A stretch of DNA of 64,000 nucleotides. Source: a virus (Duplodnaviria; Heunggongvirae; Uroviricota; Caudoviricetes). The stretch is from the IMG/VR virus record IMGVR_UViG_3300042298_002704. The stretch is one strand, 5' to 3'. Under the pieces are notes generated by a model. That model was not told where the DNA came from. It saw only the letters and a list, made by a program, of their open reading frames with translations, and ran no database searches. A program made the position numbers and the translations under genes. Numbering within the stretch: the first letter of the stretch is position 1; the number at the start of each line of letters is the position of its first letter. Shown here piece after piece: positions 37,447 to 61,927 of the stretch.

Positions 37447-39993
37447 TTAGAAAAAAGGATTCGGTTCATTTTGTTCAACTTTCCCCCAACCCAAATCTTC
37501 CCAAATAGTATCAAGTTTTGATATAAAGGTTTGTTGAAAGACTTTTTCCCTATCAATAAATTGTTCTACAAATTCAACTATCTGCTCAGGGTCTTCGCCT
37601 TGACCTTTTAAAGCCATTGTTTCAAACCCGAAAGGATTTTGTTTCATATAGGCATATAAAATTTTATCGCCGTCATCAATTTGAGGTATAGATTCAATTT
37701 TGTGAAGGTCTAAAAGTTTATTGTAATTTTGGGCAGATTTGACGTGAATCGGGATGTTCTTAGTTGCAGTTTTATATTTGGAAATTTCTTTCACTGATGT
37801 TGGTAACATAATGTCCCAGATAGGACTTTGTTTGTATTCTTTTTTGAAGGTTCGAACCTTTTGATTTAAATTATCCTTCGAAACGTCATTCAACACATCA
37901 ATAATCATTTGTCGCATAGTCGACCTGAAAATTTTGGGAAACGAACTCCGAACAACATCAAATCCTTTAATTTCAACTTCATCTACGGGTAAACCATTTT
38001 TGTTGATAATGTGCATGGCATAACGTTTTTTGGCAGAACCCCAAAATGCCCGTTTTCCGACCATTTCTTGCTTAATTCTCCATGTATGAGTATTGACGTT
38101 ATGGTAACGCTTGGCATAAATGGAGTATGAATTATTGATTAATTCTTCAACCTCCTTCGCAATTTCAAGTGTCTTGTCAACAAACCCCGAATCATCAAAA
38201 TTATTGTCCGGATATAAATGTTGAATCAATGGAAGGGATTCAAAAAAACAAGAATCCGTATCCTGATATATACAATAATCTATATATGTTCCAGAATTTA
38301 TTTTTTTATTGTAGAATTGATTTCCGACTTTGGCGCTCCATTGAACTAAGGTTTGTCCCGTCAATGTAACCGATTCTCCGTTTTCTTTATCATAAAACCT
38401 GAACGTCGGAAGTAATAATACCCCATACAATGAGTTTAATAAGATTTTTTGAACTAATTGTTTACGGTCATAATAAACAAAATTATCAATATCACCATTA
38501 TTGTGATAATCCTTTGCAGTTTTCCGATATTGAGTTCGAGTATCGCCCCAAATAGTCAAAATGGTCGGAATAATACCTTTATTTTTAGTATTATATAAAA
38601 TTCCGGCAGAAGAAACACTTAAATTGTTATCATTTAAAAACTCCAATAATTCTGAGTGAGTTTGAAACGTGAAGTTAAGTTGTTCTGAATCGTTACCAAT
38701 TAATTGATCTGAAACGTGGCCTTTTTTATATTTAATTACTGACCAAGGTTTATCACGTTGTGCTACAAAATCATCAACTACATATGATTCAATCCTGCCC
38801 CATTTAGTTTCAGGACTGATGTTTAACGTTTTGATATTGTTCGGATATTCAGATTCCAAATCAAGGTCATAGCAATATTTATATAATCCTGAGTTAGGAG
38901 GCTTAACAAATGCTCCTTCGGCTTCGGTTTCGTTTCCATACTTTTCAGTAGCAAACGCGACAAGATTATTACGTTTACAATACGTTAATAATGCTCCGTC
39001 CAAATAACGACTTGACATCTCATAATCTTCATATGGAACGTGACCTGCATGACAAATACCTCGGGCAATCTCAATCAAGTCCATCTTTTTGTCCAACGCA
39101 ACCAAAAGTTCTACGTCATTGACGTTGTACTCAATAAACCCGTCAATATTATCCCTGAACAAATCATCCAACGTTCCGTCATATTTGAATTTACCACGTT
39201 TAAGTTCCTTTTGAGAAATTGATTCCAAGGAATAGGAACTTTCTTCATTATAGGTAAATTTCTTATATAATTGCATATAGTCCATTTGGGCAACACCTGC
39301 AATCTTAATACAAATATCCCTCTTATTCATTGGACGTTCATATACAACTTTAATAGGGCTTAATTTTTGTGCTTGGGAACGTCCTAAAACGTTGCACATT
39401 CGATTATAAAGGTAAGGACAATCATAGACCCCGCTATTCCAACCTGAGACGATTGTGGGCGAAATTTTGACCCATTTGACCAAGAAATTCATTAGCAGTT
39501 CGCGTTCCGATTTAAAAACCAGAACGTCGACCAAAAGGTTCTGTCCGTTAATAACGATTTCCTTGGTACAATTTTTTAAATTGCCCGTTTCATCCCATAA
39601 CAAACAAACGTATTTTCCATCATAAAAATAGGCAATGGAAGTAATTTCATTTAGGGCTTCTTTTGGAGTTGAATATCGTAATCCCTTCTTAACCTCAATA
39701 TCGAAAAACAGAATACGATGTCCCTTCGAAGGTTCATCGCTTTCGAAATATTTATCAATCAAAACCCTTGTCGCAATGGGAACGTCGTGTTCAAAAATCA
39801 TTCCCTGCTTTTCCGCTTCCTTGCTCCAACTTTTGACTTTTTTAACCTTTAAACCCGTCAGGGTCTTATATTCGCCATTTGGATCAATCTGATACGCATA
39901 AGGCTGATATTCGAAAGTACTGTATCCAGTAGTGTCGTCCCACAAGTGACACATCCCTGTTTGACGGTCATGGTAAAAGTTTTGATATGCCAT
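37447..39993 (-). CDS. polB: DNA polymerase family B (T4 gp43-like)
   Basis: Exo FFDIEV, SGWN...YD, YNVND; pol DLESEYP, KILLNSLYG, YQDTDS. Confidence 0.97.
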   Translation of the reverse strand: MAYQNFYHDRQTGMCHLWDDTTGYSTFEYQPYAYQIDPNGEYKTLTGLKVKKVKSWSKEAEKQGMIFEHDVPIATRVLIDKYFESDEPSKGHRILFFDIEVKKGLRYSTPKEALNEITSIAYFYDGKYVCLLWDETGNLKNCTKEIVINGQNLLVDVLVFKSERELLMNFLVKWVKISPTIVSGWNSGVYDCPYLYNRMCNVLGRSQAQKLSPIKVVYERPMNKRDICIKIAGVAQMDYMQLYKKFTYNEESSYSLESISQKELKRGKFKYDGTLDDLFRDNIDGFIEYNVNDVELLVALDKKMDLIEIARGICHAGHVPYEDYEMSSRYLDGALLTYCKRNNLVAFATEKYGNETEAEGAFVKPPNSGLYKYCYDLDLESEYPNNIKTLNISPETKWGRIESYVVDDFVAQRDKPWSVIKYKKGHVSDQLIGNDSEQLNFTFQTHSELLEFLNDNNLSVSSAGILYNTKNKGIIPTILTIWGDTRTQYRKTAKDYHNNGDIDNFVYYDRKQLVQKILLNSLYGVLLLPTFRFYDKENGESVTLTGQTLVQWSAKVGNQFYNKKINSGTYIDYCIYQDTDSCFFESLPLIQHLYPDNNFDDSGFVDKTLEIAKEVEELINNSYSIYAKRYHNVNTHTWRIKQEMVGKRAFWGSAKKRYAMHIINKNGLPVDEVEIKGFDVVRSSFPKIFRSTMRQMIIDVLNDVSKDNLNQKVRTFKKEYKQSPIWDIMLPTSVKEISKYKTATKNIPIHVKSAQNYNKLLDLHKIESIPQIDDGDKILYAYMKQNPFGFETMALKGQGEDPEQIVEFVEQFIDREKVFQQTFISKLDTIWEDLGWGKVEQNEPNPFF

Positions 39994-52360: not shown

Positions 52361-53734
52361 TTAAAACAATTGTTTTTTACGATTTTGCTGTCTTTGATAT
52401 TCTTCGGCTGCAACTTTTTGCTGATATTCTGAATCACTCATGGTTTCATTTTTTGTTTTTTGTCCTTGTTCAGATTCAGGATGATAAAACTCAATGATGG
52501 GCGAATAAGTATCAAATTTTCCCGGAAATGTTAATCCGTCTGGGCCTAACCTTGACTTTGATAAATATAACCTTGCTGTTTTATTCACCTTATCCTTTCT
52601 CCGTCTGGAAAGTGACATTACAACATCGGCAGCAAATATTTTTGCAAATGAATTTGAAATGCCCGAATTTTCGATAATATCAACATCGCTATTTTGCCTA
52701 TTTGTTTGGTCAACAACCCAGCAAGCAACACCAAACCTTCCAGCCAAACCTCGAATATCAGTATAAAGTTGGCCTAAAACTTTATCGTCACGTTCACCTG
52801 TAAAATCAATCTTTAAAAGTTCTGGATAGTCAATTATCAATAAATCTGGCTTATGCCCTGCTAAAACAAATTTTTCTAAATGCGCTTCCAATCCAGTTAA
52901 ACTCAAAGTCGAGGGCGGAAACTCTTTAATGAAAAGTTTACCTTTTAACTTTGAAACTGTATTTTTAACTTGATCCTGATGATATTTTAAATCGTCAAAA
53001 GGGATATTATTCAGAAGGGAATCGTATCGTTTAGCAGTATAAATATCCGCCAATTCCAAAGTATAATGTAAGACAGTTTTTCCTGCTTTTACTGCGTTTG
53101 CGCCGAGTTTAGTCAAAAACCATGATTTTCCTAATCCACTCGGTGCGATGATGATCCCCAAACAACCTTTCGGCAATCCTCCGTTCGTCACTTCATCCAA
53201 TACTTCAAAACCAGTTTTTACTCGTTCAGGTTCTGCTTCTTCCGTATATCGATATTCAACATCATCAATAAAATTGTGACCGAAGTTTTGATTTACAATT
53301 CCTTTTTGAATAGCAACTTTGAACCTTGATAAAATTGAATCGTAATTACCTTGTTGGAAATCATTTATTGAACTTTCAAATGCTTGTTTAATTGCCTGAT
53401 TTTGACCAAATTGGATTGCCGTTTCTTTGATGTATTTTAAGTCACTACTTTCAATTTCCTTAAACGCTTCTTTGAGTGAATTTACAACTTCCTCTCTTAA
53501 TGTTTGAGTTTGAGGAATATTTGAAATTTGAATCTTGAATACGTCAATGGTTGGAAGTAATTTGAAAACTTTGAAATAATCGTAAGTTTTTTCAACTAAC
53601 CACTTCAATGCCGGACTTTCAAAATAATCAGGTTGGATTAAATCTAAACTTTGAGTTAAAAAATCTCTGTCCGTTATTAATGCAGTCAGAACCTTGACTT
53701 GAAATTTATACCCATACTGATTTAAGTTGTCCAT
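52361..53734 (-). CDS. dnaB: DnaB-like replicative helicase (probable start MDNLNQYG at 53734)
   Basis: TGFEVLD, IAPSGLGKS (Walker A), HYTLEL, IIDYPEL, DQTNR, RLGPDG. Confidence 0.93.
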   Translation of the reverse strand: MDNLNQYGYKFQVKVLTALITDRDFLTQSLDLIQPDYFESPALKWLVEKTYDYFKVFKLLPTIDVFKIQISNIPQTQTLREEVVNSLKEAFKEIESSDLKYIKETAIQFGQNQAIKQAFESSINDFQQGNYDSILSRFKVAIQKGIVNQNFGHNFIDDVEYRYTEEAEPERVKTGFEVLDEVTNGGLPKGCLGIIIAPSGLGKSWFLTKLGANAVKAGKTVLHYTLELADIYTAKRYDSLLNNIPFDDLKYHQDQVKNTVSKLKGKLFIKEFPPSTLSLTGLEAHLEKFVLAGHKPDLLIIDYPELLKIDFTGERDDKVLGQLYTDIRGLAGRFGVACWVVDQTNRQNSDVDIIENSGISNSFAKIFAADVVMSLSRRRKDKVNKTARLYLSKSRLGPDGLTFPGKFDTYSPIIEFYHPESEQGQKTKNETMSDSEYQQKVAAEEYQRQQNRKKQLF

Positions 53735-54708
53735 ACGTTTAAACCTGAAAATGTCATTAACAACCACTCATCAACATTTTTGAAAACAGTAGCCAATCCA
53801 TCTTCCATCATTAACTTTCGTATCTGATAGTTGTTTGTTTTACTTATTTTTGGATTTTCCAACCTTTCAAACAAATTTATCTTAGTTGCACCGGAAATAT
53901 CAGTTTCCTGTAATTGCATCAAATAATAATTTCGTTCAAGTAATTGTTCGTTTTCAACTATGTTTTTGAATATTTGTTTTGGTTTCTTTTCTTCTTGAAT
54001 TTTTTGTTTACTTTCTTCAATTAACCTTTGAATGGAAGTTGGTTGTGGAAACGATTTAACCAATGTTTTCAAACCAATTCCCGGAACTCCGTCAATGTTA
54101 TCACTTACATCGCCCGTTACTACCCTAAACGTTAAATATTCTTCCGGCGTAAGGTTCAACTCCTGATAGAAATTTTCATTTGTATAAAGTTTCTTTTTGA
54201 CAGGTGAATAAATTTCAACGTTCGGACTAACTAACTGTAAAAAGTCTCTGTCCGTACTTACAATTCGAACCTTTGAATCCAAGGGTTTGAAATATTGCAT
54301 AGTCATATACGCAATTACATCATCTGCTTCAACGTTCGGAACACAATAAACTTCGACTGGTAAATTTTCAAAATACTTGAATATTTGAGCCATCTGCGTT
54401 CGCATGACCTGTTTTTCTTCCTCTACACTTGAAAATAAATCCTTCCTCAAACCACTTGAACCATTACGGTTGGCCTTGTATTCAGGAAACACTTTTTTAC
54501 GTCGTTGTGAACCTCCACTTCCATCCCAAACTAAGATACATCTCGTTGGTTTGAAATCTCGAATGTTACTTCCAATTGAACGTAAAAATCCAAGTATCCC
54601 CCCAATATAATCACCTCTTTCTGAAATGTCGGACATTGAAGAGAAAATTCTCATGTAAGAATTCAATGAGTCGATTATTAAGACTCTATCATTTCTGGTT
54701 TTATTCAT
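53722..54708 (-). CDS. 5'-3' exonuclease / RNase H-like flap nuclease
   Basis: LIIDSLN, VWDG, YKANR, EADDVI, STDRDFLQL, GDVSDNIDGVPGIGLKT. Confidence 0.95.
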   Translation of the reverse strand: MNKTRNDRVLIIDSLNSYMRIFSSMSDISERGDYIGGILGFLRSIGSNIRDFKPTRCILVWDGSGGSQRRKKVFPEYKANRNGSSGLRKDLFSSVEEEKQVMRTQMAQIFKYFENLPVEVYCVPNVEADDVIAYMTMQYFKPLDSKVRIVSTDRDFLQLVSPNVEIYSPVKKKLYTNENFYQELNLTPEEYLTFRVVTGDVSDNIDGVPGIGLKTLVKSFPQPTSIQRLIEESKQKIQEEKKPKQIFKNIVENEQLLERNYYLMQLQETDISGATKINLFERLENPKISKTNNYQIRKLMMEDGLATVFKNVDEWLLMTFSGLNVWTT

Positions 54709-54944
54709 TCAAAAAACCGTGTTATCGAATTTTTATTATCAGGATTTATCAAAGAAAATACTAACCAACCAAGTATTACCAACAAACCAATCGCAACCAC
54801 GACAAATCCTATTTTAGCAAGCCAAGCAACAAATGAATGTGCTGTCGAACTAAACTCGGATATTAATTTACCAATTGTTCCGATCACCCACAATACAGTA
54901 ACCAGAAATATACTACTCCATAAAATTCGAACTAAGTTAAGCAT
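54705..54944 (-). CDS. Small membrane protein (79 aa)
   Basis: Two hydrophobic segments. Confidence 0.55.
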   Translation of the reverse strand: MLNLVRILWSSIFLVTVLWVIGTIGKLISEFSSTAHSFVAWLAKIGFVVVAIGLLVILGWLVFSLINPDNKNSITRFFE

Positions 54945-55146
54945 CTTTTTCTAAATTATTTTTGAGAAAGTTATAAACCATTTCTATAAATCGTTTACGT
55001 TTTTGTTCATCATCAATTATATATTCACTTTTGAAATCCGATGGTAATTCAGAATCCAAAAATTCACTTTCAAGTGAAATTGTAAGTTTCCAATTCCCAT
55101 TTTCAAGATGGTGAGAATTTACAAGTACGTCAAATTCTTTTTTCAT
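54937..55146 (-). CDS. Hypothetical protein (69 aa)
   Basis: ORF overlapping neighbours. Confidence 0.55.
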   Translation of the reverse strand: MKKEFDVLVNSHHLENGNWKLTISLESEFLDSELPSDFKSEYIIDDEQKRKRFIEMVYNFLKNNLEKDA

Positions 55147-55342
55147 AATAATCCATATTTTCGTTATCTAAAAATACAATTTCTTGGGTATTCTCATCGC
55201 AGAAAAATCCAACCAAAGGTTTATCTAAACGAACTGTTAATTCGGTATCATCAACATCTGAAAATTCAGAAAAAACAACATCGTAATTCAAGTATTGATC
55301 AGGCACTTGATGTAAAAAATCAATTAAATTATTTAATTTCAT
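55130..55342 (-). CDS. Hypothetical protein (70 aa)
   Basis: ORF overlapping neighbour. Confidence 0.55.
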   Translation of the reverse strand: MKLNNLIDFLHQVPDQYLNYDVVFSEFSDVDDTELTVRLDKPLVGFFCDENTQEIVFLDNENMDYYEKRI

Positions 55343-55345
55343 ATA

Positions 55346-56515
55346 TCAATCTTCGTTTGTTACTTCAAGTTCAATGTCGTCAATTCCCAATTCTTCTTCA
55401 TCTTCACCTGTATCATATTTCATAATATATTCATCACAAATTTGTTTATAAATTCGTTCCTTTAATTCCGGATTTTCAGTCAATAAGGCCTTGAAATCTT
55501 TGGATTGGAATTTTTTTGTAATTTCTTCACCCGTTTCTTCATCTACAAATTTATATGTATAACTTGAACCGCTTTGACCAATGGCTCCCAATTCTTTCAA
55601 ACAAGTCAACCAACTTCCATAATTGTCAATACCACTATCGTAACGAACATCAAAGGTTATTTTCCTACGAGGCGGCCCCAATCTATTTTTAACAACCTGA
55701 ACCTGAATACGTTCACCAATTGCAGTATCAATCCCGTTAATTTTACCTTTGATTTGTCCTAATTTTGACAATCTCAAACGAGTAGATGCAGTGAAGGGAA
55801 TTGCTTGGCCCCCCGAGGTTGACCATTTATCAGCGCCGAAACCAATAGCATTCATGTTAGCACGAAGTTGATTAATCAACACCAACAAAATTTTTCTACC
55901 AGCAATTAATGACGGGATTTTTCGCATTGCCTTTGAGTTAACAATTGCTTTGGTAGTTGCGTAACCATCCTTTTCGTAATCTGCTTCCAATTCAGCCAAT
56001 GTACTTGCACCCATAACTGAATCAATTACAATAACAACTGGTTTATCTTTATCAGAAGCAATTGTTTTTTCAATAATCATTTCTACTGCTTCATAAATTT
56101 CTTCTAATGCACGAAGTTTATCAGTGTAAATAACCTTTTCAGGGTCTAACCCGACTGAAACGTAAAAATCAAGCATACCGACTGCCTTTTCGGTATCGAA
56201 TAGAACCGCAAGGCCCCCCATTTTTTGACATTCAGTTAATATGTGCGCTGCTAACAAACTTTTGCCGCTGCCTTCTAAACCACTTAATTCCACAACCGTC
56301 CCAAATCCTAATCCGCCATGAGGTCTATTTGAAATTGATAAATCTAAAATATCACATCCAGTGGGACACCAACTTTGAATCATATTCGCTGCCGATAAAA
56401 ATTCAGCAGCGTTAGGATATTCCTTAAATTTTTTATTTATAATCGAAAGTACATCAGACGCTAAATCATCAATTCTTTCTATCTTCGTAGGTTTTTCAGT
56501 AGTTTTTTTCGCCAT
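55346..56515 (-). CDS. recA: RecA/UvsX recombinase
   Basis: PTGCDILD, ELSGLEGSGKS, FDTE, VIDSV, INQLR, SGGQAIPFTASTRL, VKNR. Confidence 0.96.
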   Translation of the reverse strand: MAKKTTEKPTKIERIDDLASDVLSIINKKFKEYPNAAEFLSAANMIQSWCPTGCDILDLSISNRPHGGLGFGTVVELSGLEGSGKSLLAAHILTECQKMGGLAVLFDTEKAVGMLDFYVSVGLDPEKVIYTDKLRALEEIYEAVEMIIEKTIASDKDKPVVIVIDSVMGASTLAELEADYEKDGYATTKAIVNSKAMRKIPSLIAGRKILLVLINQLRANMNAIGFGADKWSTSGGQAIPFTASTRLRLSKLGQIKGKINGIDTAIGERIQVQVVKNRLGPPRRKITFDVRYDSGIDNYGSWLTCLKELGAIGQSGSSYTYKFVDEETGEEITKKFQSKDFKALLTENPELKERIYKQICDEYIMKYDTGEDEEELGIDDIELEVTNED

Positions 56516-56540
56516 TAAGTTTTCATTTAAAAAGGGATTT

Positions 56541-56577
56541 AAAAAATAAGGGAACCAGTTTTTGAGGCTGATTCCCC
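56541..56577 (-). terminator. Rho-independent terminator after the SSB gene
   Basis: Minus strand GGGAATCAG-cctcaaaaa-CTGGTTCCC followed by TTATTTTTT. Confidence 0.75.
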
Positions 56578-56598
56578 ATTAAATACACAAACAAACAA

Positions 56599-57498
56599 TT
56601 ATTTACTGTTCAACAAATCTTCAAATTGTTTTTCAATATCAGAAACATCAACTTGTGAAGTAGGTTGTTTAGGTTCAGAACCCGGAACTTGGAAGTTTGT
56701 CATATCAAAACCTTCGTTTGTAGCAGCGTGATTTGTACGAACATTGTTAGGATTTGAAGGAGTTTGTTTAACTTCTGGTTCAACCTTCAAATACTTAGCA
56801 AGTGCGTCTTCAAGTTCTTGTTCAGTTGGACAAGTGAACAATTCAGCCACATTTGGCATATTTTTGATTTTATCCAAAACTTCCGGATCATCTGTTGCTA
56901 CGGTTTGATTTGGTTTAACCACAATAGTCGTCTTACCAAATTCTCCCTCTTTTGATGGCGGAGTATATTTGACAGTCATATCGCGACCAGTCTTCAAACT
57001 GGTAATATCACCATAATCATCGTCCGCCATAATTTCCAAAATTTGATTGAAAATTGTCTTTGAAAAGCCCCAAAATTTAACACCATCACTTTCTTGACCT
57101 CGAACCAAAACTGGAACGTAAACGCGATCCTTTGGCATTAATTTACGTTTAATCTGCATCTTAGTGACATATTCTTCTTTTGAAAGTTTTCCACCAGAAG
57201 TTAGTCCGTTACAATATTCAACAATTGGGTCATGTTTTTGAAAGCAAGTTGGCGAAATCCATGTTTTTCCAAAATCATAATAAAAGTAAAGTTCTGCAAA
57301 TGGATAACCTTCTTCGGTATAAGGGTTTGGCAGAATTCGAATCTGATCAGTTAACGAATTTCCTTTGTCGTCTTTGGTTTGTCCGGGTTTCCAAAAAACG
57401 TTGTTACCTCCGCCTCCTGAATTTGAAGGTTTTTGTGCTTGTTTGTTAAGTTCTGCAAGTTTTTGTTTAATTAAATCAAGTCCTGTTGGTTTTTGCAT
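56599..57498 (-). CDS. Single-stranded DNA-binding protein (T4 gp32-like)
   Basis: FWKP, IRILP, VLVRG...KFWGF, YGDITSLKTGRD, acidic C-terminal tail. Confidence 0.85.
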   Translation of the reverse strand: MQKPTGLDLIKQKLAELNKQAQKPSNSGGGGNNVFWKPGQTKDDKGNSLTDQIRILPNPYTEEGYPFAELYFYYDFGKTWISPTCFQKHDPIVEYCNGLTSGGKLSKEEYVTKMQIKRKLMPKDRVYVPVLVRGQESDGVKFWGFSKTIFNQILEIMADDDYGDITSLKTGRDMTVKYTPPSKEGEFGKTTIVVKPNQTVATDDPEVLDKIKNMPNVAELFTCPTEQELEDALAKYLKVEPEVKQTPSNPNNVRTNHAATNEGFDMTNFQVPGSEPKQPTSQVDVSDIEKQFEDLLNSK

Positions 57499-57574
57499 AA
57501 GTTTTCCTAAGTGGTTTAAATTGGTTAAAAAAGTAAGTAAAATTTCCCTTTAAGGGAGTTAAAATCGTTATTTA

Positions 57575-57615
57575 CAAATATAAGTAATTTTTTTCAGAAA
57601 GTCAAGTCCATTAAC
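57575..57615 (-). promoter_or_regulatory. Bacteroidota-type promoter with upstream GTTAA driving the SSB gene
   Basis: GTTAA-N4-CTTG-N20-TATATTTG. Confidence 0.7.
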
Positions 57616-57644
57616 AAAAGATTAGGAAATAATTCATCATTTAA

Positions 57645-57926
57645 TTATTTTTTCCGATAAACAAATACTGCTTGTTCAAATCCTATTGTATCCACATCTG
57701 ATTTATATATATCTACGCCCGATGTTTCATTTGCAATTTCCACAAGAACTTGTCCGGAGGCTTTCAATATATGACCGGCGGCTGCGATAGCCAATGAATG
57801 GTGCAAATAATCTGGAACAGCATCTATGCCAATCCCGGCAATAACATCATCTATATATGATGTTTCACTTAGTGACGCATTTATAATGTGATTAATTACT
57901 GCGCTTTTCAATTCTAATTTTTTCAT
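57645..57926 (-). CDS. Hypothetical protein (93 aa)
   Basis: ATGA overlap with upstream gene. Confidence 0.55.
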   Translation of the reverse strand: MKKLELKSAVINHIINASLSETSYIDDVIAGIGIDAVPDYLHHSLAIAAAGHILKASGQVLVEIANETSGVDIYKSDVDTIGFEQAVFVYRKK

Positions 57927-58603
57927 AATTTTATTTGTTTTAATTCGTGATAATTTTTTCCTGCTTTAACGTGAAAGGGTATTCCATCAAATACTTGGAT
58001 TATTTCATTTAAAGTTTCTTTTCCGTCCGAAATTGAATAATCAAACAGGAAAGAGTCATAAGTGTAAAGGATTAGTTTTGTTTTTTTATGTTCTAACCGT
58101 TTGTTCAACTCAGACAACAAACTTGTATTAAATTCAGTTTCCAAATTTTGAAGCATATAGTTAAACAACTTTGTTTGGGTTAAACCTTTGATTGTAATTT
58201 TTCTACCAAACAAAAATGTCGTTAGTTTACCCTGCTTATATTGTTCATAAATGTTATGTTGAAGTTGTTTAATTGATTTAAATGGTTCAACATTTACAAG
58301 ATTTTCGTCAACCCCACCATATATCTGTTTGAAGGTATATTCTTTCGGGTTTACATCGGGAGGATAAAAAGGTTCCAATTCCTTATAAATGTCTTTGGGG
58401 AATGATTTTTCTAAAATCAAATAAATTAAATACAAGTGGAAGCCACTTAAATCTATTTCAAATAAAAATCCATCTTCATATCTGGAAACGAACCTTTGCC
58501 TTGAACCATCTTCTTTATTTAAGGCAGCATAATTGATATTGTTGAAGTGGTTTGATGGGCGACCTGTTAAAGTGAAAGGATGGTATTCTGAATATTCAAA
58601 CAT
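57923..58603 (-). CDS. Mini family-A DNA polymerase, C-terminal (palm/fingers) half
   Basis: TLTGRPSN, FEIDLSGFHL (motif A), KEYTFKQIYGG (motif B), LYTYDSFLF (motif C). Confidence 0.85.
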   Translation of the reverse strand: MFEYSEYHPFTLTGRPSNHFNNINYAALNKEDGSRQRFVSRYEDGFLFEIDLSGFHLYLIYLILEKSFPKDIYKELEPFYPPDVNPKEYTFKQIYGGVDENLVNVEPFKSIKQLQHNIYEQYKQGKLTTFLFGRKITIKGLTQTKLFNYMLQNLETEFNTSLLSELNKRLEHKKTKLILYTYDSFLFDYSISDGKETLNEIIQVFDGIPFHVKAGKNYHELKQIKL

Positions 58604-58938
58604 TAATCAATTAAAGTTTTAAATCGAACCAAATATGCTATATCATTACCATATTGAACCGATGGATACCAAGCAATTAATTTTCGACTATTCCACCATT
58701 CTAATTGAGATTTATAAGATTTGTCATTAATGAACAGTCTTCTTGAAATGACAGTGAACCTTGAAATCCCAACAACAACTTTGTCGTCAAAAATTATATT
58801 ATCATCGTAGGTTATTTCACCTATTTCCCGATTAAAAAAGAAACTTGGGCGTTCAACTTGAACAAGGTTATTTCCATGAAGTCCTATTGATTTCAAATCT
58901 TCAAGAGTTTGCGTTTCTATTTTAGGAATCAAGTTCAT
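58603..58938 (-). CDS. Hypothetical protein (probable start MNLIPK at 58938)
   Basis: TAATG coupling to the PolA C-terminal half. Confidence 0.55.
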   Translation of the reverse strand: MNLIPKIETQTLEDLKSIGLHGNNLVQVERPSFFFNREIGEITYDDNIIFDDKVVVGISRFTVISRRLFINDKSYKSQLEWWNSRKLIAWYPSVQYGNDIAYLVRFKTLID

Positions 58939-59245
58939 TTGATTTATAAAATGATAAACAAGTACAATCGTTTCCACCCTCAGATTCAACCCACGCTCGA
59001 TATAAAAATCCATTAATTTCGATAAATTCAAAATCAGAAATGCAATCATATTCATCCAATTCACAATTAAACGAAACTAAATCGTCGGGGTTCAATTCGT
59101 AACCATCAATAATCATATATGCATATTCTCCACCAGTATCTTCTTCCGGAGTAGCAATATATCCGTTTTCAAAAGTAATTTTTTGAATTTCTGAATATTG
59201 ACCTTTATGAACTTCTTTAACTTTAAAATTTTTAATATATTTCAT
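58922..59245 (-). CDS. Hypothetical acidic protein (107 aa)
   Basis: ORF after intergenic regulatory region. Confidence 0.6.
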   Translation of the reverse strand: MKYIKNFKVKEVHKGQYSEIQKITFENGYIATPEEDTGGEYAYMIIDGYELNPDDLVSFNCELDEYDCISDFEFIEINGFLYRAWVESEGGNDCTCLSFYKSNELDS

Positions 59246-59303
59246 ATTTCAATATTTAATTTTAAAATGACTATCCGCATATTGTACCCCAAATCTACCC
59301 GCC

Positions 59304-59338
59304 CGCAAATTATTGCGTAAGTCATTGATTATCAATGA
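59304..59338. promoter_or_regulatory. Palindrome TCATTGAT-T-ATCAATGA overlapping an IHF consensus site, preceded by CGCAA-atta-TTGCG
   Basis: 59318-59330 read on the minus strand is AATCAATGACTTA, matching WATCAANNNNTTR exactly; lies between divergent genes. Confidence 0.55.
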
Positions 59339-59347
59339 TTAAATATT

Positions 59348-59382
59348 TTTGTTTTAAAATACCGGCTTTTTGTTTACCTTTG
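59348..59382 (+). promoter_or_regulatory. Plus-strand Bacteroidota-type promoter
   Basis: TTTG-N23-TACCTTTG (spacer slightly long), 25 nt upstream of ATG at 59408. Confidence 0.45.
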
Positions 59383-59407
59383 GTCATCACTCAAAGCACT
59401 TTCAATT

Positions 59408-59536
59408 ATGGCTGAAAACAATAACAACACCAATTCGACCACAAATAGCACCACTACTACCACTCAAACCGAACAAACTCCTGCCGCTCCCACTCAACCA
59501 CCCTCGCAATGGTCTATGAAATATGCTTCTGTGTAA
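59408..59536 (+). CDS. 42-aa low-complexity peptide; only credible plus-strand gene
   Basis: MAENNNNTNSTTNSTTTTTQTEQTPAAPTQPPSQWSMKYASV*; own promoter; its stop lies 1 nt from the YegP stop. Confidence 0.5.
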   Translation: MAENNNNTNSTTNSTTTTTQTEQTPAAPTQPPSQWSMKYASV

Positions 59537-59537
59537 T

Positions 59538-59717
59538 TCATTTAGTTTTATCTTCAATTATTTCAGTTTGAGCATTTGCCTGAACAGATGCGATTCCATT
59601 ATAACACGCTGCTAAGGAAGCATATTTTTGACTGGTAGCAATTACGAAACCGTTTTTCGCTTTTAACTGAAAATAAAATCTTCCGGCCTTTGCTTGTAAA
59701 ACTTCGTATTTAGCCAT
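59538..59717 (-). CDS. YegP/DUF1508-family protein (59 aa), not in ORF track
   Basis: MAKYEVLQAKAGRFYFQLKAKNGFVIATSQKYASLAACYNGIASVQANA. Confidence 0.85.
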   Translation of the reverse strand: MAKYEVLQAKAGRFYFQLKAKNGFVIATSQKYASLAACYNGIASVQANAQTEIIEDKTK

Positions 59718-59735
59718 TATTCTATTTTTTATAAT

Positions 59736-60065
59736 TCAATATTCAATTTCTTCATTTTCAATATCAAATTTACGGCCGGAAGTATAATCGAAATCAACAT
59801 TCATTTTAAAACGATATTTTATAAACATTTCGTCTGGTACAATTCTATGTGCAATGTTACTAAAAATTTTAAAAAATAATTTATTAATATGTGAACAAGT
59901 TTCATGTTCACATTCATTAAATGGGTAAATACCTTCAATTTCTTTTGGGATTTTACCATGAAAAAAATCGTAATGAATTTCGACTATTCGTTCATTTGGA
60001 GTATTTACTAAAATTCTACCAATCTCTTGAGCATATTGTCGTAGTTTAAAATCTGTAATAATCAT
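59736..60065 (-). CDS. Hypothetical protein (109 aa)
   Basis: ORF in operon-like packing. Confidence 0.55.
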   Translation of the reverse strand: MIITDFKLRQYAQEIGRILVNTPNERIVEIHYDFFHGKIPKEIEGIYPFNECEHETCSHINKLFFKIFSNIAHRIVPDEMFIKYRFKMNVDFDYTSGRKFDIENEEIEY

Positions 60066-60075
60066 ATTTCAATAT

Positions 60076-60276
60076 TTAATTTTCTTTAATCCATAATGTT
60101 GGAAACGCAAACGTATTACCTTCTTTACCCAAACCATCAACATTTATTCGTTTATTTGTTCGTCCACATATAACATATTCAATATTATTTTTATCCAATT
60201 TTCCGGTATAATTAAAATGTTTTTCTCCACATCTTCCACACTTATCAGTCTTCCATTTATTTTTAGTTTTTCTCAT
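60076..60276 (-). CDS. Small zinc-binding hypothetical protein
   Basis: CGRCGEKH...YVICG. Confidence 0.55.
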   Translation of the reverse strand: MRKTKNKWKTDKCGRCGEKHFNYTGKLDKNNIEYVICGRTNKRINVDGLGKEGNTFAFPTLWIKEN

Positions 60277-60374
60277 ATTTCGATATTCAACTGTTTAGCA
60301 ATTTGTTTGACTTTCATTTTGGTATCATAATGGAACTTGAAAGTTTTCTTATTTTCATCTGGTGTAAATCCCAT
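60273..60374 (-). CDS. Possible 33-aa peptide, not in ORF track
   Basis: MGFTPDENKKTFKFHYDTKMKVKQIAKQLNIEI*; ATGA overlap with the next gene; start overlaps the PolA N-terminal half. Confidence 0.35.
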   Translation of the reverse strand: MGFTPDENKKTFKFHYDTKMKVKQIAKQLNIEI

Positions 60375-60894
60375 TCTTTTCAATTATACTTAAATTTTCA
60401 AGTAGTTTATCATATTGTTTCAAAGTTTCGTCAGGTTCGTAATTTTTAACATTTATAACGAACTTATCCTTTAATTCTCTGCACCATTCTAACCATTTCA
60501 TTATGGGGATATAATCATTTATATTTTCAACGCTTCTAAACTGGTTCCAATAACTTCTTATTGTAAAAGGAACCTCAACTTCTAACTTCTCATTTGTTTC
60601 TAACCAAAAAGCCATTTGAGCATCATAATTTTGCCCACAATCGTTTAAGTATTTTTTCTGATATATGAAGTTGTCTTGACCTATAAAGTCGCTTAGAATT
60701 GAAATGTGAAGGTTCTGTGCATCGTTATGGTTGAAAGTTAAAATACATTCGTCAAAATTTTCTAAGTCGTATGCGTATATGAATGAAAGTCGATTCAGTA
60801 CCCAATGTTTCTTATGGTCTGATAAAACTGGAACGATTAATTTCCTTTTTTGCTTCCAACCTTTGACTTCATCATTTTCCTCAATGAATTGCAT
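60355..60894 (-). CDS. Mini family-A DNA polymerase, N-terminal half (degenerate exonuclease-like domain plus ExNGI helix)
   Basis: VPVLSD...NRLSFIY...LTFNH...NINDYIPIMK...IIEKNGIYTR*; the ExxG(I/V) helix normally precedes TxTGRxS within one PolA chain. Confidence 0.7.
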   Translation of the reverse strand: MQFIEENDEVKGWKQKRKLIVPVLSDHKKHWVLNRLSFIYAYDLENFDECILTFNHNDAQNLHISILSDFIGQDNFIYQKKYLNDCGQNYDAQMAFWLETNEKLEVEVPFTIRSYWNQFRSVENINDYIPIMKWLEWCRELKDKFVINVKNYEPDETLKQYDKLLENLSIIEKNGIYTR

Positions 60895-60910
60895 TTAAAA
60901 ACGTTTTTCA

Positions 60911-60950
60911 CAAGTATAGGTTAAAACCTTGACATTTCCAAATGTTTAAC
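60911..60950 (-). promoter_or_regulatory. Bacteroidota-type promoter with upstream GTTAA
   Basis: GTTAA-N3-TTTG-N20-TATACTTG. Confidence 0.65.
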
Positions 60951-60957
60951 ATTTCAT

Positions 60958-61182
60958 TTAGAAAGGAGTCGCTAATTTGAAAATATCCTTGGTAAGTTTC
61001 CCGTCTTGGTTCACAAACTGAAAATACCTACCAAACCAATCATACTGACGGTTTTTTAGACTGGTTTCAAGTATGTTTTTAAATTCGTTGTAATTGTTCT
61101 TTTCCTTTGCTGCCATCAAAGCATCTTGAAACTCTTCGTATTTTGAAAAAGAACGTTCAGTTAAAATTTTTGATATTTTCAT
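60958..61182 (-). CDS. Hypothetical protein, possible head-packaged
   Basis: N-terminus MKISKILTE. Confidence 0.55.
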   Translation of the reverse strand: MKISKILTERSFSKYEEFQDALMAAKEKNNYNEFKNILETSLKNRQYDWFGRYFQFVNQDGKLTKDIFKLATPF

Positions 61183-61715
61183 TTTGGTTTCCTTATAATA
61201 ATTCGTTTTGGGTATTGTTCTTCAATTTCCCAATCTTTGGGTATAAACTTTTTAATCAATCGCATCGAGAATAAATATCTTTGGTGACTGACTGGGTTGA
61301 ATACTAAAAGTTGAGCAAAATCTTGTTGTTTAAATTTAGGAATAATTTCATCTCTGAAAATTTTTGCAACTGTATCACTTCTCTTACTTCCAACAATTCC
61401 TGAACTATTTTGGGGAAGTTTATTGTAAATTGGAATTCTTGAATTTGGTTCATACCAAAAAGTTTTGAACTCGCAAAAATTTTCAGTTTTACCTAAACTT
61501 GAAGTCATTATTGCGGTAAAAATAATTCCATCATCATCTTTAAACCTATAACAGCCCCTGTCATAAAAATATTGATAAGCATTTTCCGGATTCAATAATT
61601 CTCCCAATAACAACGCAGTCGTTATATTTGCTTCATCAAGTGAATCAATTGGATGATATTGTCCCTTTTGATTATACTCCTCAATCAATTCATCTAAAAT
61701 ATCATTTAATTTCAA
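61179..61715 (-). CDS. Hypothetical protein (178 aa), possible head-packaged
   Basis: N-terminus MKLNDILDE; TTG start. Confidence 0.6.
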   Translation of the reverse strand: MKLNDILDELIEEYNQKGQYHPIDSLDEANITTALLLGELLNPENAYQYFYDRGCYRFKDDDGIIFTAIMTSSLGKTENFCEFKTFWYEPNSRIPIYNKLPQNSSGIVGSKRSDTVAKIFRDEIIPKFKQQDFAQLLVFNPVSHQRYLFSMRLIKKFIPKDWEIEEQYPKRIIIRKPK

Positions 61716-61927
61716 AACATTAATCCTCCTAAGTTGAACAACTCTGGCCGCTCATCTCTAATTTTAAATTCAAGTTTATTTATCAATTTTATATATTCTT
61801 CATACGAAATTTCATTTAATTCAAATTGGTTAAATATTTTCCAAAATTCAACACATTCAAAATTTTCAAATTCGCATAAAAATTCTAAATCATAATATCC
61901 CATTTCTTCAATATGTGGTCTATTCAT
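61712..61927 (-). CDS. Hypothetical protein (71 aa)
   Basis: Overlaps both neighbours by 4 nt. Confidence 0.5.
   Translation of the reverse strand: MNRPHIEEMGYYDLEFLCEFENFECVEFWKIFNQFELNEISYEEYIKLINKLEFKIRDERPELFNLGGLMF

Follow-up and report, generated by a model that had tools for sequence, protein, structure and literature searches.

A probable two-gene form of a divPolA1-type polymerase, with a variable gene island at the break, in a clade of uncultured phages

Here we present an analysis of a polymerase locus in IMGVR_UViG_3300042298_002704, a Caudoviricetes record of IMG/VR, of which a stretch of 64,000 nucleotides (nt), called the window below, was studied. On the whole, the locus probably encodes an accessory family-A polymerase of the divPolA1 type that is split at the thumb stump into an N-gene and a C-gene, the two products being expected to assemble non-covalently. 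The N-gene is located at 60355..60894 on the minus strand and encodes 179 amino acids (aa), which form an exo-like N-terminal domain and two helices leading to the thumb stump, and end in ...IIEKNGIYTR*. The C-gene, at 57923..58603 on the same strand, encodes 226 aa beginning with MFEYSEYHPFTLTGRPSN and supplies the remaining palm and the fingers, with the TGRPS motif, motif A (D51), motif B (K87, F91, Y95) and motif C (Y182-D183). Both open reading frames (ORFs) and both termini had been given in an earlier note on this DNA and are found there as claimed. The genes are 1751 nt apart, and the ATG of the C-gene overlaps the stop of the preceding ORF by one base, as TAATG; the same note had already described this overlap with the last gene of the intervening island, and it is seen in the sequence.

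The two pieces account well for one whole protein. Their lengths sum to 405 aa (179 + 226) against 402-406 aa in the nearest fused relatives, and the last four residues of the N-gene product together with the first three of the C-gene product correspond to the linker of 3-4 residues in these relatives. The 11 invariant and 29 near-invariant columns of the family alignment are conserved throughout both halves, 5 of the 40 positions lying in the N-gene and 35 in the C-gene; the N-gene retains the family positions H30, H56, P130, E172 and G175. Motifs A, B and C, previously judged to look intact, are so in the sense that every conserved family residue is kept. Neither half has a match in Pfam, PHROG or NCBIfam, so that automated annotation overlooks both, and family membership was therefore established via fused relatives. 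The phage is uncultured, and a blastn comparison of the region with 50,697 phage records gives no match.

With the C-gene as query, tblastn finds single-chain proteins of 408-452 aa in Microcystis phage Mel-JY01, an uncultured 484-kb phage and Flavobacterium phage vB_FspM_immuto. The immuto protein (E=1e-22, 90% coverage) is annotated as a family-A polymerase, and genes for a single-stranded DNA-binding protein (SSB), a recombinase and a 5'-3' exonuclease follow it. The N-gene matches residues 34-150 of the same protein by BLASTP (E=3e-6) and aligns in order to residues ~11-171 of single-chain relatives. Both halves thus align to single chains in the same order, with a summed length equal to the fused length, and the homology of the N-gene to the N-termini of these chains, on which the earlier note had made its reading depend, is borne out by the sequence alignments.

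The immuto protein belongs to divPolA1, a divergent second family-A polymerase described by Yutin et al. 2024, Virol J 21:200 (PMC11348598). It was reported to have a truncated thumb and an inactivated exonuclease, to be encoded beside replication genes, in phages possessing a regular polymerase as well, and to be known from vB_FspM_immuto and related phages of 155-190 kb, with 14 genomes in total (PMC11348598). The locus in the window resembles it in its homology to the immuto protein, in the truncated thumb, in the palm residues kept and, apparently, in the lack of exonuclease motifs, and also in its position upstream of SSB, recombinase and 5'-3' exonuclease genes and its coexistence with a regular polymerase, here a PolB. 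It differs in that the published members are single chains, a split not being mentioned (PMC11348598), whereas here two cistrons, each an ORF complete with start and stop codons, flank 1.75 kb of unrelated genes. Family membership also goes far beyond the published 14 genomes: a HMMER search of 1.84 billion representatives at E<=0.001 gives 931 homologues, which widens divPolA1 to a large environmental family beside the main replicase.

The assignment to family A is supported by profiles and by structure. Distant fused members pass the gathering score of Pfam DNA_pol_A, and a profile of 84 fused members matches the Klenow fragment with E=1.2e-7 and is aligned to Klenow motifs A-C. A fused relative with 57% identity to the C-gene product gave an AlphaFold (AF2) model with a predicted local distance difference test score (pLDDT) of 95.9; Foldseek with this model gives >200 matches at E<=0.001, and family-A polymerases are all that is found among the matches listed. 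Against KlenTaq 296-832 the model is superposed over its whole length (Z 27.3, root-mean-square deviation 3.3 A, 331 residues), and its N-domain aligns to the exo-like region of KlenTaq and Bst; Pfam gives no exonuclease match in the N-gene. The spacing from the IEKNG helix to the TGR motif is 14-40 residues in the 84 family members, compared with about 124 in Klenow, and the thumb is therefore reduced to a stump. The break follows the second polymerase-domain helix, where the thumb of a canonical PolA would be. Two statements of the earlier note are hereby substantiated: that the break lies at the missing-thumb loop, which the Klenow profile alignment and the family alignment place at the thumb stump, and that the IEKNG and TGR motifs are directly joined in relatives, which is true of the fused relatives.

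We then give an overall view of split and fused forms. Among the best 150 of the 931 homologues, nearly all are single chains of 390-460 aa, in which the match to the C-gene begins at about residue 165-225; family-wide, the halves are thus not separate genes in most relatives, a finding that would have spoken against a split according to the earlier note. The closest relatives reverse this pattern. Ten IMG/VR loci have both genes in the same order with 40-95% identity, making eleven split loci when the window is included, while one fused ORF is found in L013/L014 and in L019. The gaps in the split relatives are 30 nt (L016/L017), 249, 373, 649, 966, 1118, 1121, 1648, 2424 and 2560 nt. The minimal form is that of L016 (1393-1428) and L017 (1365-1400), where both genes are in the same frame and are separated by a single TGA and ten sense codons before the ATG of the C-gene, that is, by a 30-nt spacer without cargo. 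Readthrough of this TGA would restore a linker of family-normal length. The proteins of L016 and L017 are identical although the contigs come from two different samples. In addition, stand-alone N-genes form at least 21 clusters at 90% identity, with lengths of 161-189 aa, and all of them stop two to four residues past IEKNG[IL] or its variant IEATGL. In all split loci, separate start and stop codons delimit each gene, and the two are kept adjacent in the same order in every locus with enough upstream sequence. Judged from these loci, the split characterizes an entire clade of uncultured phages and is not restricted to a single one.

The ratio of nonsynonymous to synonymous substitution rates (dN/dS) is nearly the same for the two halves, being 0.067 for the N-gene and 0.068 for the C-gene between the window and L005, and it stays at 0.07-0.09 for both in all pairs that are synonymously unsaturated (window-L005, L006-L007, L006-L008). 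These values indicate that both halves are under strong purifying selection. The N-genes diverge faster, with identities of 49-62% against 65-73% for the C-genes in the same pairs. From this purifying selection, and because the halves are always retained together, we infer a working in trans. A fission exactly at the thumb stump has turned one polymerase gene into two cistrons, with the exo-like domain and the helices up to IEKNG on the 179-aa product and the remaining palm and fingers, including all catalytic motifs, on the 226-aa product, and the two polypeptides would associate non-covalently into one enzyme. The two helices of the N-gene product belong to the polymerase domain and pack on the palm in the fused model, and the exo domain, even an inactive one, is reported to be required for the stability of PolAs (PMC10201439). 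Wherever an island exists, the ATG of the C-gene overlaps or abuts the stop of the preceding gene, and such overlaps may provide translational coupling of the C-gene. As suggested by the conserved synteny, the enzyme might fill gaps or extend recombination intermediates together with gp32, RecA/UvsX and the flap nuclease, as a kind of "Pol I in pieces".

Several observations weigh against an ordinary polymerase of this kind. Motif C reads YDS instead of HDE, and its second carboxylate has no counterpart across the whole family; motif B lacks a conserved equivalent of Klenow R754; and a near-invariant His (C-gene H56) takes the place of the steric-gate Glu in motif A. Due to these departures in motifs A, B and C, the substrate may not be ordinary dNTP and DNA, and the sugar selectivity may differ from that of an ordinary PolA. 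Besides, the N-gene positions H30, H56, D58 and D91 are conserved at 87-98% across the 84 family members (as His, His, Asp/Glu and Asp/Glu); this set differs from the classical DEDD exonuclease motifs and appears to leave room for an activity of the N-gene product of its own. These four positions could be a metal site or serve a separate role. Finally, the signals of the promoter scan are at chance level. A sigma-70-like match (9/12) is located at 60941-60913, upstream of the N-gene, but in this AT-rich region promoter-like matches number 25 against 21.4 +/- 4.6 expected, and the terminator scan is likewise at chance level; a promoter belonging to the N-gene itself, which the earlier note had proposed, is thus putative at most, sigma-70-like matches being no more frequent than chance.

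Now we turn to the island between the halves. In the window it consists of five intact minus-strand ORFs (66, 109, 59, 107 and 110 aa), a deletion scar and a 292-nt stretch. Six or seven small genes had been counted here before, together with a palindrome and a plus-strand gene; the minus-strand ORFs are five rather than six or seven, while the palindrome and a candidate plus-strand ORF are indeed present. The deletion scar (60280..60358, minus strand) starts with an ATG that overlaps the N-gene stop (ATGA), and after its MKIRK codons the final 78 nt of a DUF5662 gene follow in another frame. This can be read from L005, the nearest relative covering both sides, on whose intact gene the DUF5662 assignment rests: by blastn, window 60357-60280 matches L005:5924-6001 (86%), and L005:4900-5923 is absent from the window, a loss of ~1 kb comprising the ART-PolyVal ADP-ribosyltransferase gene and most of the DUF5662 gene. 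Conversely, the window holds 1.66 kb without a counterpart in L005. The first island gene varies among the relatives, being an ART-PolyVal gene of 157 aa, a 129-aa ORF or an 84-aa ORF (L005:4885, L006:3576, L007:691, L008:4355). All of these start with the same MKIRK... codons over the N-gene stop, and the window (60356-60358) retains the codons only. Gene bodies seem to have been swapped downstream of a conserved start.

Following the scar in the direction of transcription, the 66-aa ORF (60076..60276, minus strand) has a CxxC motif and a sub-threshold match to Zn_ribbon_recom (E=0.086), with no counterpart in the relatives' islands. The 109-aa ORF (59736..60065, minus strand) has no match in Pfam, PHROG or NCBIfam, and its family (109/119 aa) provides the only gene of the L011 island. 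The 59-aa gene (59538..59717, minus strand) is a DUF1508 (YegP-like) gene (Pfam PF07411, E=1.6e-18), which is also present in the L008 island. Next is the 292-nt stretch at 59246..59537, the only one in the island without a minus-strand ORF; it contains the perfect 17-nt palindrome (59322-59338) and the candidate 42-aa ORF on the plus strand (59408-59536), is covered by no relative, and has no Rfam family at E<=1. The 107-aa ORF (58922..59245, minus strand) is found in the window island only. The 110-aa ORF (58603..58935, minus strand, its start at 58935 picked by homology) belongs to a recurrent family (window, L006, L012, L015), gives no family match and no Atlas match, and its stop is the one that overlaps the ATG of the C-gene. 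On the whole, island gene families are patchily common to the loci and drawn from a partly shared pool: the DUF5662 gene is found in the islands of five loci, and the relatives' islands hold many singletons, such as the R2K ATP-grasp and DUF4419 genes of L015. Some genes in the relatives' islands are of conflict type, namely the ART-PolyVal gene (L005:4885-5358), the R2K ATP-grasp beside DUF4419 (L015:3746-5394) and a restriction-endonuclease-like 205-aa ORF (L015:5384-6001).

A short leader is repeated within the island. Three copies of 13-20 nt are present in the 64-kb window, each inside the island at a gene start and on the minus strand: a 13-mer at 60274..60286, which forms the 3' end of the DUF5662 remnant and has the ATG of the next gene embedded in it, and 20-nt copies at 60063..60082 and 59243..59262, directly before the 109-aa and 107-aa ORFs, respectively. 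The exact 20-mer has 3 matches in 64 kb, all within the island, against 0.23 expected. The leader is the 3' end of DUF5662, and the same 13-mer is at the 3' end of DUF5662 in L007, which suggests that cassettes may have been added by recombination at the leader/DUF5662 junction. When the leader repeat is combined with the opening codons of the C-gene into one pattern, matches occur at chance level only. T4-type genomes have hyperplastic regions, where cassettes are shuffled at short repeated regulatory sequences. The island is similar to them in its small unrelated ORFs with stop/start overlaps, its quick turnover and its repeated short leader, but the slot here lies inside what is elsewhere one protein-coding gene, and the repeat comes from the 3' end of a resident DUF5662 gene rather than from a promoter stem-loop. 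The island is probably secondary cargo, in that the new junction would have become a slot for the gain, loss and shuffling of small accessory genes, to which the short repeated leaders may contribute.

The history of the split is complex. In the tree of concatenated and fused proteins, all split forms fall in one clade of 15 rows (support 99/94), within which four fused proteins are nested, so that at least 4 state changes are needed; the approximately unbiased (AU) test rejects monophyly of the split forms with p=0.0196, for a group that was named after the tree was seen. The junction is the same in nearly all split cases, with the C-gene starting with MFE. L012 and L015, two deep branches, share an island family with the window group, which points to a single origin, with later re-fusion or allele replacement by fused forms. 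Fused members within the split clade carry the short linker of the outgroup, which argues for retained ancestry with repeated or lateral acquisition.

Such interleaving of fused and split forms would agree with a mobile element, an alternative that we regard as doubtful: the split may have been made or spread by such an element, for example a free-standing homing endonuclease of the Aeh1 nrdA/mobE type, with the island as its decayed and overwritten remnant. It concerns the origin, and is compatible with a working two-piece enzyme. Besides the tree, it is favoured by the divergence between the window and L005, which differs on the two sides of the island (DNA identity 96% towards the N-gene and 87% towards the C-gene; synonymous divergence 0.39 vs 0.73) and therefore marks a recombination junction at the island, by precedents in T4-like phages (PMC3045599, PMC2988022), and by the 205-aa ORF that ends the L015 island and points to PD-(D/E)xK restriction-type nucleases, as an Atlas lead only (score 0.92, TM 0.5-0.55). 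However, no HNH, GIY-YIG, LAGLIDADG or other endonuclease family is found in the window island or among the relatives' 20 island ORFs, and for the window island Pfam, PHROGs and NCBIfam agree with the earlier note that no mobility gene is visible. The split of L016/L017 by one in-frame TGA has no cargo at all, and in the co-conversion test residues near the junction show no excess similarity among split alleles relative to split-fused comparisons. The commonest island gene, DUF5662, looks like an HD-type hydrolase: its H, HD, H and D positions are invariant, and the weak fold matches obtained for it (Z 5-7) are almost all HD-domain hydrolases; a PDB profile search with it found nothing. This recurrent 216-aa gene had been considered as a homing endonuclease with a helix-turn-helix tail, a candidate that was rejected on its identification as DUF5662.

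As to the function of the split, it might be adaptive, although we hold this to be rather improbable. Free chain ends at the thumb stump would admit a separate thumb or processivity partner or an opening around DNA, the N-gene product would have an activity of its own, and the junction would be a protected landing pad for accessory and counter-defence genes, which would be expressed and retained because the start of the required C-gene is linked to the cargo stops. If this were true, simple deletion of the island would silence the polymerase.

It is also improbable, in our estimate slightly more so, that the two genes have gone separate ways, the C-gene as a minimal polymerase alone and the N-gene in another role or on its way out. 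The conserved His30, His56, Asp58 and acidic residue near 91 of the N-gene, outside the classical exonuclease motifs, would fit with this, as would its faster divergence noted above. Nevertheless, loci with enough upstream sequence always keep both genes adjacent in the same order, the dN/dS of the N-gene is as low as that of the C-gene, its product carries the two polymerase-domain helices packing on the palm, and the reported need of PolA for the exo domain (PMC10201439) speaks in the same direction. That the halves are rejoined to a single chain by a self-splicing intron, split inteins, ribosomal bypass or stop-codon readthrough is very unlikely. The in-frame genes of L016/L017, with their readthrough linker of family-normal length, are in its favour, but in the window the gap of 1751 nt is filled with five ORFs whose starts and stops overlap or abut, the 179 + 226 aa equal the fused length with no intein-sized surplus, and throughout the split loci each gene is delimited by start and stop codons. 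Among these routes, group I/II introns have no support, since cmscan of 57500-61300 at E<=1 finds no intron and no other Rfam family and the gap is filled with overlapping ORFs, and split inteins are rejected, since the termini align to the fused linker of 3-4 residues with nothing extra. A decaying pseudogene disrupted by an insertion has the least chance of all: it would agree with an interrupted coding sequence and with neither half reaching the Pfam threshold, but both ORFs are intact in the window and in all ten split IMG/VR loci at divergence down to 40% identity, 40/40 conserved positions are retained, and the low dN/dS of about 0.07 together with intact ORFs clade-wide therefore excludes it.

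The reading of a split divPolA1-type enzyme can be compared with known systems in pieces. In S-SBP1-like T7-like cyanophages, PolA is split into exo and pol genes (Czernecki et al. 2023, NAR 51:4488; PMC10201439). As here, a family-A polymerase is naturally in two genes, with products predicted to reassemble into the canonical fold; unlike here, the subfamily is another one, replicative and proofreading-active, and the break is at the exo/pol domain border with a +1 frameshift and adjacent genes. The break in the present clade is two helices into the polymerase domain, with a gap that usually contains an island, and no frameshift of the S-SBP1 type is involved, the gap of the window being 1751 nt and L016/L017 having an in-frame stop. 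In T4-related phages, genes in pieces include the Aeh1 nrdA split by mobE (PMC3045599) and cases of topoisomerase and gp43 (PMC2988022, PMC2993671). They share with the present locus that a DNA-metabolism gene in a T4-like phage is interrupted by inserted ORFs with its pieces kept, here presumably as working subunits. They differ from it in that no homing endonuclease is detectable between the pieces in the window island, the only nuclease-like lead among the relatives being that in L015, and in that the insert here is a variable multi-gene accessory island, the same break being found with 30 nt to 2.6 kb. Therefore, the divPolA1 family, the split PolA of S-SBP1-like podoviruses and the T4-type genes in pieces are already known, whereas the fission of divPolA1 at the thumb stump, its clade-wide conservation, the graded gap sizes and the gap serving as a slot for accessory genes appear to be undescribed in the literature searched.

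The locus offers a natural site, the thumb stump, at which a split of the family-A polymerase fold has been tested by evolution. The relatives make up a ready-made allele series of fused forms, a single stop codon and islands of 0.25 to 2.6 kb. This series is suited for asking whether a PolA-type enzyme can work as two subunits, as well as how a new inter-cistronic junction becomes a hot spot for accessory genes in large phages.

Besides the polymerase genes, the neighbourhood in the window contains a module at 53722..57498 on the minus strand, downstream of the C-gene, with the same gene order as downstream of the fused gene in phage immuto. It comprises a gp32-like SSB (56599-57498; Pfam gp32), RecA/UvsX (55346-56515; Pfam RecA) and a 5'-3' flap exonuclease (53722-54708; Pfam 5_3_exonuc_N/5_3_exonuc), all on the minus strand. 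The full PolB that the earlier note had ascribed to this phage is found 18 kb away, at 37447-39993. Three additional small ORFs (71, 178 and 74 aa) lie upstream of the N-gene in the window, at 60958-61927. In relatives, a conserved 189-aa gene adjoins the polymerase gene directly upstream (L013:4846-5464, L016:202-811). A 93-aa ORF is also located between the C-gene and gp32 in the window. With extra ORFs at several gene borders, the whole neighbourhood therefore accumulates small genes there.

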